This document shows positions 9,001 to 15,000 of a stretch of 27,041 nucleotides of DNA, piece after piece. A program made the position numbers. Numbering within the stretch: the stretch's first letter is position 1; each line of letters opens with the position of its first letter. Source of the stretch: a virus. The stretch is from the UHGV virus genome UHGV-1672366; one strand, written 5' to 3'.

Positions 9001-12000
9001 CGAAAGCTCCCATAACGACTTTGCCTCACACAGCCTCCGAACTCTCCGCTTCGGTGAGGATTTCCTGACACAAAATATCCAACTTGCTCAGATCAAATCC
9101 GCCGTCAGTATCGTGGACAATCTTGCAATAAGCAGATACCGACTCTCCCAGACTATCGATTTTGCTGGTTTCCGTTGTGCTTGCTGTCCCTTCCATCATG
9201 GATGACTTACGGATGAAGTTGCACACGACACCTTTTGCACCCATTGTTTTGAGGATGTTCTGGTACTTAATGCCTTCTTCATCGTTCTCGATTACGGCGC
9301 GGAAACGCACGTAGTTGCCGCGAATTTGGTCATCGGCAACATAATCTTCCAAGTTAATGAATTTAGGCGCACTGGTTTCGTAGTGACTGAAACTGCCGTC
9401 CGGGTTTACGATCATGTAACCAGCCAGAGATCCAACATCTCCCCAATTTTGATGGGTCAGTGCACCGACACTGATAACTCCAGGAATGACCTCTTTGTGG
9501 TTGTGGTAATGTCCACTAAGCACGAGACGAAAGCCGATATCCTTTAACTCCTGCGCATCGATACCGACGTCAGGCATTGTTGGAATGGCTTTGTTAATGG
9601 ATGTATGGATAACAACGTCATGATTATCACCTTCTACGCTCTTACGTAATGCTTTCAGATCGCTGATAAGCTCCGCATGATTGTTACGCCAGCTAATCAG
9701 GTGGACAGTGACATCACCAATTTTTATTGAGTGTGGGCGTTTGCCACATACGATTACCACGCCGATAGAACTCAGCGATGCTGCTGCGTTGGCGCTATAT
9801 ACTGAATCGTTGGTTTCAAGATCGTGATTACCGGCCAGCATTACTACTGTCAGATCAAGCTCGTTGATAATCCACTTGTACGTTTCAGTTACGTAATGCA
9901 AAACAGAAGGGGACACAGTTCCTCGGACGTGAAATGTATCACCGGCAACCAACATGTACGTACAACCGGCCTTTTTCATGGCGATGGCTGCTTCTTTCGT
10001 TGCTTCCAACTGTATTTCAAGTCTGGAGTTAAGCCCCTCAGCGTTCGTCGTGGAGAACGCATCCCATTTGTGATAGTGGCAGTCAGAAATGACGCCGTAT
10101 GGCAAAGTCATGTGTTTTTCCTTTGTGGTTATTTTGATACAAATTCTAAGAGCAATGAGAAGGTAAACAACTATGCATAACGGTATGTTAGGAATGAAAC
10201 AAACGCCTTAATATACAAAATTTATAAGTAAGTATATACCTATTTATTGTGGCGCAAGTTTGCTTGTCTATATGACTAAAAATAAGACAGAATCACTGTA
10301 GAACGCTATGAGAGCTATTTTGAGGAGGCGTAGATTCTATCTACGCCAATATACGATCTGGAGGGTTACAGCGCGTCAGTGGGCTTTTTACGCGCTGCGT
10401 TTATGCTTATGACGCCAGCTTTTGGACGTGGGTCAACAAGGTTAAGTTCTTCTTCACTGTGGTATTCGAGGTCGAACTCACGTTTTACATGTCTGATGTA
10501 GATTGCGGTGAGCAGGCTATCTTTGGTTAGGAAGTGTCCGTAGGATTTGCGGATCACTTCTTCTACCTTCTCGATTTTCTCACCACCCATACAGAGATGA
10601 TTAAACCGGCTGTGTTTCCGCAACATTTCGTCTACTGGGCCTGAGTAAACCTTGTCTACTTTCCCAAAACGGATGATTTTCCCTGTGTCTGCGGATACAA
10701 GGCAAATCAGCTTGTCTGGTGATAAACGATCTCGCCACGTCACACCTGAACGGAGTGTGTTGAAGTAGGGTGCATCCAATCCGATGATCGGTTTACGAAA
10801 TGCGAGCAATGGAACGTACCTGATGCAACTGTTTAAATGAAAGTTCACACCAGCCTTATCAAGTTTAATTCTGGTTTCGTAGATCGGGCACTTCGCCGCT
10901 ATACCGCAGATGTCACAAAGCAACTTCTGCTTATTCAGGTTGGAATTTGATTCGATAGTGTAGGAGCCGTCTTCAAGACGACGAACCCAGCGCGTGCGTT
11001 TTAGATCCATATGTCATTTATTCTGTGATTGTTAGCCGAGGCAACGATAACCCACCAGGTGCGCCGAAGGTAGTAAAGGCCTGTTTTAATTATTCACATA
11101 TCCACAGGATAGATCCTAATAAAGAGATCCATAGATAGATCCTTGTATAGATCAAATAAGATCCCCGATCGCTGTAAGCCGCGCCACGACTGGTCTGAAG
11201 CCATGTTCATGTATGCTGCCAGCGGTAATTGATAGTCTGTCAACGGTTCGCCGTATGCTGCCAACTGTTTTTGGTATGCTGCCAGCGGCAAATCAAGTAT
11301 GCTGTCAGCGGTTGAATGACAAAGGTGTCCACATGTCCACAAAAAATAAAAAAGGTAAAAATAACAAAGAAGTAGAAGATAATCTCGACAACTTTGAAGA
11401 AGGTTCCCTTGAATTGTACACAGGGGAACTTGTCCCTAATAGCAACAATACAGTCCAACCAATTGCGTTGATGCGGCTGGGGTTGTTCGTGCCCACGCTC
11501 AAGGGGACAAAATACAGCAAGCGTAACAAGCCAAATGAGATCGATGCTTCAAAGGAGCTTGTTCAGCTCGAAGTAGCCCGTTCTGAAGGCTATTCCGATA
11601 TCAAGATAACCGGTCCTCGTCTCGACATGGATCATGATTTCAAAACGTGGGTGGGCGTTGTGCGTTCGCTGGCAGAATACGGCGAACCTAACGGTCGTGT
11701 CGAGTTAAGCATCACGAAATTTGCGAAGTTTTGTGGCTATCCATCGTCACAGATCCGCAAAACACTCCGCGACCGGCTTACAAACAGTCTTTTGAAGATC
11801 ATGCGTACAACTCTGTCTTTCCAGAGAACGTATGAAGAAAAGAACGTCGACGGCTCTAACAAGATCTCGCTTCTGATGGTGCACCTAATCAATAGTGTGG
11901 ATTACAACGAGCAGAAAGATACGGTGGTGTTCTATGCAGAACCGAAGCTGGCCGAACTATATCGCTTTGACCATAAGGTTCTTTTGCAGTTAAAGGTTAT

Positions 12001-15000
12001 CAATAAGCTACCACGCAAAGAAACAGCACAGGCTCTGTACACCTTCATCGAAAGTCTTCCAACCAAGCCTGCGCCGGTATCGCTTGCTCGATTGCGTGCG
12101 CGACTCAATTTGAGTAGCAGGAATGTAAGCTCGCAGAATCAGACTATACGTAACGGCTTAAAAGCTCTCCAAGATTTGGGCTATCTCGAATACAGCGAGA
12201 TTAAGCGTGGGCGGTCGATCTATATCCAGATTCACAGCCGCAATCCAAAACTCAAAGTCGCACCGCCAAAACCTGAAGACATCGAACCCAAAAAACCAGA
12301 TGAGAAAGCTGGGGAAATTGATGCCAAACAGAACATTATCAACAAGATAACCGAACTTTCGCAGAATTTGACGCCTGAAAATATCAAGATGATTGAGATC
12401 CTTTCCAATAGTCTCAAACTGCTTTGATATGCTGTCAGCGGTGAAAAGTATGCTGTGAACGGTTAAAGATATGCTACCAGCGGTATAGTGAGATGAACGT
12501 ATGCTGTCAGCGGTAAATCATCTATCACCACTCAATGCTCTGTCATACCTCCCCAGTGGTTACTAACCTCGAAGAGTGCATTCCATATAGGTTTGCGCTC
12601 ACTAACATTCTATTGCTATTGCGCTGATTGCTTGTAGTTAAAGGCATTTATTGCCTGCTGCTCCCTGATAGAACGTATGCTGTCAGCGGTGTTTTATTGA
12701 GGAATTTTTGTTTGGATATGCTATCAGCGGTAATTAATGGTATATGTCAGACCTTCGTATGCTGCCAGCGGTAATTTTGTTCTGGTTATACCCATACCGG
12801 TACACATTATTCATGCAATGTCTTAAGTATGCTGTCAGCGGTAAAAAATCGAGTAAAGTATGCTGTGAGCGGTGAGATAGACTCTCGATATGCTATCAGC
12901 GGTAGTTGATTGTGTATGCTGTCAGCGGTGACGACTATGAAATATGACTGCGGAACGTTCCGCAGTCAGTTTGCATTTAGTGTATTTTCTTTAACAGACC
13001 CCAAAGTGTTCCGGCTTTTGTAGTCAGTTTTCCTGTTTCTGGATCGTACATACGCCATTCACGCCGCTGGTGGACGATATACCCATCTTCACGTTCCAGA
13101 CGCTCAAGAATGCCAGGCTGCTTGAAACCCTTAGCACGCCAGTAGCCGCTTGTTTTCTCGATTTCCAGACCTGCCAGTGTTAATGCCATTATCCAACCTC
13201 CTTGCAGTCATCGAAAAGGTAGCTTTGCTGAGAAGCGTGAACGCCATAGAAGCCCTTGTATTTGTTGTATACGAAGTGGTCTTCTCCGACGCCGGTTAAT
13301 TTGCCATTACGGTTTGTGAGATATGGGGATGACAACACTCGATCGTCACGCACAACATAGAACTGGTCGCCGCTGTCTACGACCGTCGCTCCATATGGTG
13401 CTTTTATGACGTCGGTAAGAGCGCCATTCTTAACGTCGGCTACAGACATTTCACACTGATAAACAGTGGTGTCGGCCACAACGATCGAAGAAAGGAACAA
13501 CAGCGCGAATGGGATGGCCTTCATGCTGCCACCTCTTTGATTACATCAAATGCTGAATTAAATACGAGCACGAAAGCCAAAGCGTTTATTACTACGTCGT
13601 TCACCGGGGAAAAGACTTTACGAATGACACCAGTGAAAATGCAGTCGATGACAAAAGCTATTGACACGATGAGTAACAAGTATTCAATAAAAATCTTCAT
13701 GATAGGTAGATACTAACTTATATAAATTTTACTGTAAACTCACTCAAAAGTGCTGATGCTTAAAATACGCTCAAGATGTGCGGCATCTTCATCACTGATT
13801 TGTTGAGTCTCTTCTACGTACCAACAGTTGCCGTTATGCCAACAAACACCATCATCATCAACCATCACTGAATCAGCGTCATGACCTGTATATTCAACGA
13901 GAATACGCTGGATCAGCGCGTCAGTTTCTTCGTCGTTAAGGCCATCGGCTTTGACCATAAAAAGCGGAAACACGTCATAGACAGTGCTGGTAACGATTCG
14001 AACTAAAACTCTCATGTGTTTTTCCTTTTGTGGTTAGTGTTTACTTATTTTGTTAGTTACGAATAGGCGATCAATCTTCTTGTTTAGGGAAAAACTGTTC
14101 AATAACTCTGTCAACGGCTGTGTCTATATGGAGTAGATGCCACACAACCATATCTTTGCTCCCCATGCCTTGTGTGAATATCACGTCATACTTACGCCAT
14201 GCGCAGTGGAACCAATATGCTGAGTCATCAATTGGTAAATCCTCTCCCGCCTCTTTGAAGTATTTCAGCAGCATTGCTTGCTCTGCCGTTGGCGTTGGAC
14301 CTATTTCCTGAGCGTACATACGGATAAATCGCTGCCAGTCTGTCTCGTCAGGTGTTTGATCTGGTGGGGTCATTTCGGCGATAGCGTTTCGTAGCTGATG
14401 CGCCCAATCAGGTTCAGGAAAGCCTTTTGATACTTCATCATCAATAACACCCAGAGCCGCGTTTGCGGCATCGTAGAGTTTCTTAATAGCTGTCATGTTT
14501 TCTTATCCTTTTAAACAAATTGTTTTCTTAATAAGATAATTGCGATAAAAAAGGCGTCCAACTGGACGCCTGAACTTTTTAGGGGAGTTATTTCACTGTA
14601 ATGAAAGGAGTGTTAGCCCCTTGAGTCATGTACTGCGGTAACTGGCCATTCCATTTATTGATGGCTTCCAGTTCCATAACGTTCGGGTTTTGACGCAGAG
14701 CTTCACCGCGCAGACGAATGGCGTCTGCTTCTGCTTGCGCACGAGCACGGATAGCATCAGCTTCACCATTAGCCTGTTCACGCAGCATATTCGCCTCAGC
14801 TTTACGCTGTTCAACTTCCTGTTGACGTTGCAGAGTACGCTGGTTAGCCGTTACTTTGGCGTTGATAGATTCAATGACGGTTTTTGGGTAATCAGGTTTT
14901 CCAACCCATGACAGGCTCAGTACCTCAATACCAACCGGAGACATCTCTTTCTGAATATCTTTCAGTGCGTTGTCCAGCAATTGTGCCTTACCACCGTCGA

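Follow-up and report, generated by a model that had tools for sequence, protein, structure and literature searches.

A probable plasmid-prophage maintenance replicon of P1 type in an SSU5-supergroup phage-plasmid of the pECOH89/p09EL50 lineage

The virus genome UHGV-1672366 was analyzed as one stretch of 27,041 nucleotides (the window), and its segment 11090-12968 very probably serves an SSU5-supergroup phage-plasmid (pECOH89/p09EL50 lineage) as the replicon for plasmid-prophage maintenance; it is a homologue of the oriR/incC-repA-incA replicon of phage P1. This layout, already proposed in a first-pass annotation made from the sequence alone, agrees feature for feature with the annotated P1 record (GenBank AF234172), which lists an 18-bp DnaA site, five Dam sites, five incC iterons, a repA promoter within the iterons, repA, and nine incA iterons starting from the last base of repA. 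The order of the parts is the same in P1 and P7: two DnaA boxes, GATC repeats, a GC-rich spacer, five iterons, repA, and downstream iterons at the repA stop. The core made up of the DnaA boxes, the GATC sites, and the GC-rich spacer shares 69% identity with P1 oriR over 130 nt, more than the 58% nucleotide identity of repA itself. As judged from this alignment, the origin core is homologous to P1 oriR, beyond mere likeness of plan. The coordinates of all features are listed in Table 1.

Table 1. Features of the replicon and two neighboring genes, in window coordinates.
Feature	Position	Strand	Characteristics
214-aa open reading frame (ORF)	10366-11010	-	Diverges from the origin; start 80 bp from the DnaA boxes
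DnaA box 1, TTATTCACA	11090-11098	+	Exact match to TTWTNCACA
DnaA box 2, ATATCCACA	11098-11106	+	One mismatch; one base common to box 1
AT-rich stretch with six GATC sites	11107-11175		38% GC vs. 46% in the window
GATC sites	11112, 11126, 11138, 11150, 11160, 11167		Six in 59 bp (11112-11170)
GC-rich spacer, GCTGTAAGCCGCGCCACGACTGG...	11171-11211		58.5% GC; between the GATC cluster and the iterons
Origin iterons (incC-like), n = 5	11212, 11233, 11254, 11275, 11298 (11212-11312)	+	Mismatches 0, 3, 2, 1, 0
Candidate third DnaA box (weak), GTGTCCACA	11325-11333	+	Two mismatches; overlaps the repA start codon
repA	11333-12427 (stop codon 12425-12427)	+	364 aa; ATG start
Intragenic iteron-like site, TATTCTGCCAGCGAA	11665-11688	-	Inside repA
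Downstream iterons, block 1 (incA-like), n = 4	12428, 12449, 12470, 12500 (12428-12514)	+	Direct
Iteron-free spacer	12515-12675		161 bp; splits the downstream array 4 + 7
Non-iteron element, CAGTGGTTACTAACCT-N19-AGGTTTGCGCTCACTAAC	about 12553-12612		In the 161-bp spacer; partly conserved
Downstream iterons, block 2 (incA-like), n = 7	12676, 12717, 12758, 12828, 12859, 12889, 12915 (12676-12929)	+	Direct
Perfect palindrome, GACTGCGGAACGTTCCGCAGTC	12946-12967		Extends to 24 bp (12945-12968)
recA	15715-16788	-	Plain 357-aa RecA, intein-free

The two DnaA-box-like sites seen at first pass are tandem and abutting, lie at the outer edge of the origin (11090-11106), and align with the annotated 18-bp DnaA site of P1. 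Single DnaA boxes do not exceed chance in the window (50 observed vs. 60 expected); the weight of the two sites comes from their tandem arrangement and from their position, which is homologous to that of the annotated P1 site. The clustering of six GATC sites in 59 bp was also borne out: the maximum per 59 bp was four in 1000 dinucleotide-preserving shuffles of the window, and the second-densest cluster in the real sequence holds two. Five of the six sites are held by (A/T)AGATC(C/A) units. They match P1 site for site, five of them corresponding to its annotated Dam sites and the window's second one to a decayed GGTC. By analogy with P1, the AT-rich stretch is probably the unwinding region and the target of Dam and SeqA. 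The GC-rich spacer that follows is conserved in P1, Klebsiella pJN2-26, Cronobacter JK004, and SSU5. On the repA side of the origin, P1 has DnaA boxes, whereas the window has only a weak candidate, GTGTCCACA, which is tentatively regarded as a possible third box. The same place is occupied by GTATCCACA (one mismatch) in the Klebsiella homologue, and P1 has CTATCCACA just 5′ of repA.

A scan of the whole window for the iteron TATGCTGYCAGCGGT, allowing up to three mismatches, yielded 18 matches against 1.1 expected, a number attained in none of 100 shuffles. Sixteen of them are located on the plus strand inside the replicon. The count of iterons 5′ of repA, earlier given as three to five, is exactly five, with spacings of 21, 21, 21, and 23 bp, or roughly two turns of the helix (21, 21, 21, and 22 bp in P1). 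When this upstream array was compared with that of Klebsiella pJN2-26, 67 of 75 iteron positions (89%) but only 15 of 26 spacer positions (58%) were identical; the iterons are thus more strongly constrained than the spacers, and selection on them is visible in the alignment. They are predicted to be RepA binding sites and, by analogy with P1, are the probable site of repA autorepression. The iteron of P1 is a different one, ATGTGTGCTGGAGGG, which has no match in the window with up to three mismatches. The SSU5-type iteron AWCCACTRTAGWGAG has no match in 11090-12968, and its five weak matches across the window are at chance level. Since P1-type iterons are absent and SSU5-type ones occur at chance level only, mixed iteron specificity is ruled out, and the lack of a P1 iteron places the replicon outside the incompatibility group of P1 (P1/P7, IncY).

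An inverted iteron-like site occurs within repA as well. Positions 11245-11263, at the junction of iterons 2 and 3, form a 19-nt inverted repeat (18/19) with repA codons at 11670-11688; by a rough estimate, about 6e-4 such pairs are expected by chance. The site is also found in p09EL50 and is not conserved in Klebsiella pJN2-26. A regulatory pairing and an extra RepA site were both considered, and in view of the non-conservation in the Klebsiella homologue the repeat was left unexplained.

The repA gene was recovered with the length first assigned to it, and an AAAGG Shine-Dalgarno sequence ends 7 nt 5′ of its ATG. In near-identical plasmids, the NCBI Prokaryotic Genome Annotation Pipeline (PGAP) sets the start at the equivalent of window position 11213, at an ATG in iteron 1, which gives a protein of 404 aa. 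As the iterons are phased in multiples of three, no stop codon interrupts the ORF across them. The start at 11333 agrees with the annotation of phage PhiR41_1, with the alignment to P1, and with the Shine-Dalgarno sequence, and numerous assemblies have been rotated so that this start is their first position. The 404-aa PGAP version is probably too long.

The suggested comparison of RepA with known Rep families was carried out and placed the protein among plasmid initiators. It showed 46% identity to P1 RepA in BLASTP (E 4e-86, P1 residues 20-284 of 286), 49% to SSU5 RepA, and 47.9% to RepA of Cyrano (= pLF82), while tblastn retrieved the P1 and P7 repA genes at E ≤2e-64. The Pfam domain Rep3_N (PF01051) was matched at 37.5 bits (gathering cut-off, 22.4), and the protein falls into PHROG 775; the NCBIfam scan of RepA returned no family. 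A search of 5.8 billion proteins revealed 477 relatives, with PF01051 in all 120 of those listed, and many database homologues bear the source name "RepFIB replication protein A". A fold search was used because a PDB sequence search with RepA gave nothing at E up to 1. The AlphaFold model, built with 32 homologues, had a mean predicted local distance difference test (pLDDT) score of 71, with core blocks at 75-92. The best PDB matches of this model in Foldseek were RctB domains 2-3, RepE, 8aan (a complex of Rep, iterons, and the DNA unwinding element), pi, and TrfA, with modest template modeling (TM) scores of 0.3-0.5. All of them are iteron-binding initiators, and the likeness to RepE and pi is structural only, at 12-14% identity. 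The homology and the model support the assignment of RepA as a putative iteron-binding plasmid initiator of the P1/RepFIB family. A winged-helix domain pair and iteron-based control are common to this replicon and to RepFIB-family/Rep_3 replicons (F RepE, R6K pi, and pPS10/pSC101 RepA). An inverted-repeat operator like that of RepE was not seen at the repA promoter region.

RepA of the window is 78 aa longer than that of P1, with extensions at both termini. Disorder was predicted for residues 1-41 (a Lys-rich N-terminus) and 309-329 (a Pro/Lys/Glu-rich linker), and the model predicts two confident helices in residues 331-363 (window 12323-12424), with a pLDDT of about 82-85. The C-terminal extension (residues ~310-364) is absent from P1 RepA; SSU5-type RepA has a C-terminal extension as well.

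The 11 additional iterons reported 3′ of repA, all in one orientation, are present and were resolved into two blocks of four and seven. Each is on the plus strand with two mismatches at most, and the first begins at the base directly after the repA stop codon. In P1, three of the nine incA iterons are direct and six inverted, whereas the window's 11 are all direct. The non-iteron element within the spacer aligns with pJN2-26, where it follows the array instead of lying inside it, and with the incA gap of SSU5. An Rfam scan of the whole window, including this element, gave no match. Its partial similarity to the reverse complement of the SSU5 iteron (CAGTGGTTA) did not exceed the expectation for backbone DNA, and a relation to that iteron was rejected.

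The number of downstream iterons varies among relatives: 11 in the window, 12 by direct count in p09EL50 and NZ_CP027369.1, nine in PhiR41_1, and eight in pJN2-26. Compared with NZ_CP027369.1 (13428-13494 against window 12428-12470), the window is short of one 30-bp iteron unit (TATGCTATCAGCGGC plus spacer) after position 12441. In every other E. coli (Escherichia coli) record listed, the match is about 30 bp longer than in the window, which is consistent with 12 iterons; the 11-iteron allele was observed in the window only among the E. coli records sampled. The loss could be genuine, through recombination between the repeats, or could result from a collapse during assembly. It is conceivable, though rather unlikely, that the downstream array acts as a naturally variable copy-number dial, and that its two-block, all-direct layout with the conserved element may mean a control geometry other than that of P1 or an additional bound factor.

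A different role for the downstream repeats, as a second origin, a partition centromere, or prophage att sites in place of incA-type copy control, was also considered. The pJN2-26 record labels two 20-bp repeats flanking repA as attR/attL (1378-1397 and 2648-2667), and the split, all-direct array with its conserved non-iteron element is unlike P1 incA. These "att" sites, however, coincide with iterons 1 and 8 of 13 and were rejected as misannotated RepA iterons. The downstream repeats are the same 15-mer as the five origin iterons, hence RepA sites; the array, like P1 incA, starts right at the stop codon of repA; it contains neither DnaA boxes nor a GATC cluster; and no integration of the element was seen in 5,426 complete E. 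coli genomes, contrary to the att-site version. Such a role is therefore very improbable, and the incA-like assignment is retained.

RepA of the window is identical at 363 of 364 positions to that of p09EL50, which is reported to be identical to pECOH89 RepA and 48% identical to pLF82 RepA (Falgenhauer et al., PMC3999498). Plasmids similar to pECOH89 are typed as IncFIB(H89-PhagePlasmid) (PMC12838234), a PlasmidFinder type, and among phage-plasmids the lineage falls into the SSU5 supergroup (PMC7969092). At >95% identity, the 2-kb replicon was matched by 122 plasmid records, with few exceptions from E. coli, Escherichia albertii, and Shigella, as well as by PhiR41_1 (listed host MG1655) and CMS-2020a, both deposited as phages. 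The carriers, mostly of 100-115 kb, are circular and non-mobilizable and have the MOB-suite type rep_cluster_488, which is the sole PLSDB replicon of the plasmids inspected. About 95% of the window's first 25 kb is collinear with circular ~110-kb E. coli plasmids, including p09EL50, at 97-98% identity, and the genes on either side of the replicon are in synteny with those of SSU5. The replicon was found in 120 of 5,426 complete E. coli genomes, at 185 places, all on plasmids and none chromosomal. Together with the deposition of PhiR41_1 as a phage, these records bear out, for the relatives, the suggestion that the element replicates as an extrachromosomal phage-plasmid, and they show a circular state in these relatives. 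The earlier alternative "P1-like or SSU5-like" can be made more precise: by gene content and homology, the element is an SSU5-type backbone carrying a P1/RepFIB-family replicon, while membership of the P1 incompatibility group does not hold, as the iterons differ. Of other members of the supergroup, the SSU5-like Cyrano exists as a plasmid of about 5.5 copies and also produces virions (PMC9928086); mitomycin C did not induce the one SSU5-like element of E. coli that was tested in another study (PMC9600943).

Smaller carriers were noted as well, namely E. albertii plasmids of 62-64 kb, a Shigella sonnei plasmid of 66.5 kb, and an E. coli plasmid of 76 kb. Much of the window besides the replicon is present in the Shigella sonnei plasmid. 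These carriers may be deletion derivatives that have kept the replicon without the phage functions.

The unit of repA and iterons might instead be a relic or an accessory, with the element maintained from another origin by phage-type machinery (DnaE, gp32-like single-stranded DNA-binding protein (SSB), RecA, and an SbcCD-like nuclease). The window does encode a large phage-type set for replication and recombination (DnaE, gp32-like SSB, RecA, 5′-3′ exonuclease, and NrdAB), and P1 has a separate lytic replicon, which makes a second origin elsewhere plausible. That origin, however, would complement the present replicon and not replace it. The stronger constraint on the iterons than on their spacers, the intact and 99% conserved repA, the position of rep_cluster_488 as the only PLSDB replicon in the plasmids inspected, and its retention in the 62-76 kb plasmids all speak for a working replicon, so that there is little chance of a relic. 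Finally, an origin of the window from a chromosomally integrated or defective prophage with no plasmid state is scarcely credible: although one preprint reports S. Agona (Salmonella Agona) genomes in which a plasmid that matches the repB/parA region of SSU5 is integrated into the chromosome (10.1101/2025.09.12.675607), and the plasmid state is known here from relatives rather than from the topology or coverage of the window's own contig, 0 of the 185 matching places are chromosomal and the collinear relatives are circular plasmids.

With the segment regarded as a maintenance replicon, a mechanism can be proposed by analogy with P1. Host DnaA would bind the two boxes at the left edge, and DnaK/DnaJ/GrpE would release RepA monomers from dimers, allowing the monomers to fill the five phased iterons. 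DnaA and RepA would then open the AT- and GATC-rich segment between them, and the host replisome would be loaded there. In P1, origin opening is begun by DnaA alone and strongly enhanced by RepA, which is itself activated by DnaK/DnaJ/GrpE (PMC5043065). Owing to the six GATC sites, firing would depend on Dam methylation, and SeqA would sequester the hemimethylated origin after each initiation. Dam methylation is required at P1 oriR, the hemimethylated form of which is bound by SeqA. As in the P1 annotation, RepA on the origin iterons would repress repA. The 11 downstream iterons would titrate RepA and, via RepA, handcuff the origin iterons, resulting in a low copy number; deletion of incA in P1 raises the copy number several-fold.

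Several points weigh against this interpretation. Replication, copy control, incompatibility, and the dependence on Dam, SeqA, DnaA, and DnaK are ascribed to the segment by homology. The putative autorepression by RepA through the iterons is the weakest step of the mechanism, as no consensus promoter was found: a sigma-70 consensus scan of the plus strand (10900-13300) detected no promoter within the iterons or close to them, and the spacers equivalent to those of P1, when inspected by eye, showed no convincing -35/-10 pair for repA. The pairing geometry of the all-direct, split array, and hence the strength of handcuffing, may differ from that of P1 incA. In P1, parAB lies directly 3′ of incA, which is not so here; no par genes were detected directly 3′ of the array in the window, and none are annotated in the 26 kb inspected around the NZ_CP027369.1 replicon. 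On the supporting side, pECOH89 is reported to have its own dam as well as parA and parB, the par genes being located elsewhere in it (PMC3999498). Virion or structural genes were not found in the window, the backbone of which is of SSU5 and not of P1 type.

In SSU5, pHCM2, and pLF82 (Cyrano), the replicon occupies the same genomic position between syntenic flanks (the 214-aa ORF at the 5′ side and 70-aa and 111-aa ORFs at the 3′ side), and the origin-core sequence is common. SSU5 differs from the window in its iteron, in the mixed orientation of its downstream iterons, and in having two tandem core-plus-iteron units 5′ of repA (SSU5 2256-2490 and 2640-2900). The repA-proximal copy of the SSU5 core has decayed GATC sites and DnaA boxes. 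These sequences suggest that the SSU5 origin was duplicated and that one copy is degenerating.

The Klebsiella pKPHS1-type replicon, represented by pJN2-26, has the same iteron 15-mer as the window in five upstream copies with identical spacing. Between the two, identity is 85% for RepA, 76% for the nucleotide sequence of repA, and 77% for the origin core. For the Klebsiella "IncpKPHS1" replicon, the reported number of downstream iterons is only four, and a RepA domain was not recognised (PMC6735626). On the basis of the shared iteron, the window replicon is predicted to be incompatible with pKPHS1-type phage-plasmids. RepA and the iterons have co-diverged from those of P1 and SSU5, and compatibility with both is therefore predicted.

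The origin core is distributed more widely than this combination of RepA and iterons. A 94-kb E. coli plasmid has the same core before another iteron, TTGACTRTRCGCGAT, and a distant-mode search with 11090-11199 alone revealed numerous plasmids of 84-146 kb from E. coli and its close relatives, with ~83% identity (aligned with NZ_CP128927.1 2001-2109), the RepA and iterons of which are of other types. The occurrence of one core before differing iteron types implies that the part serving host factors is kept while RepA and the iterons change together.

At the 3′ end of the replicon, the palindrome first described as 22 bp long is perfect, as stated, and its full length is 24 bp. It scores as an intrinsic terminator on both strands and is located 9 bp from the end of a converging leftward operon, the last gene of which ends at 12977. 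Its sequence and position indicate that it is probably a bidirectional intrinsic terminator at the boundary between the replicon and this operon. Two substitutions in NZ_CP027369.1 change the palindrome into an 8-bp GC stem with a 6-nt loop, and among the sequences compared the hairpin is fully palindromic in the window only. Because these substitutions spare the stem-loop, the conserved feature is the hairpin and not the perfect symmetry.

The replicon is flanked on the 5′ side by the 214-aa ORF, which belongs to PHROG 2105, holds the same origin-adjacent position in SSU5 and pJN2-26, and matched no Pfam domain. Converging small ORFs lie 3′ of the downstream array, of which the 70-aa and 111-aa ones are syntenic with SSU5. 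Genes with Pfam matches in the window encode NrdB, NrdA, an SMC/SbcC-like ATPase, an SbcD-like phosphoesterase, RecA, a 5′-3′ exonuclease, a gp32-like SSB, and DnaE; an SPFH gene belongs to the backbone as annotated in relatives. The adjoining genes first named sbcCD have SbcC- and SbcD-like domains, and the assignment is by domain only. No tRNA was detected in a scan of the window. The recA genes of NZ_CP027369.1 and PhiR41_1 are 2,340 nt long and annotated as a LAGLIDADG homing endonuclease, corresponding to an intein-bearing RecA. By these gene sequences, members of the lineage differ in whether their RecA carries the intein.

The family of the element, its phage-plasmid nature, and its replicon type are already known from the literature and typing databases. 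Elements of this type have been sequenced hundreds of times, and the replicon is a plain homologue of that of P1, the best-studied iteron replicon, so that the finding amounts to little as a discovery. The searchable papers offer little on the origin, and a base-level map of the IncFIB(H89-PhagePlasmid) origin was not found in them; the one given here follows readily from that of P1 and has modest practical value. Two recurring annotation errors are corrected by it, namely the repA start placed in iteron 1 and the iterons labelled as att sites. It also provides compatibility predictions for phage-plasmids carrying blaCTX-M-15, the iteron of which is that of the Klebsiella pKPHS1 type, unlike those of pLF82/SSU5 and P1.

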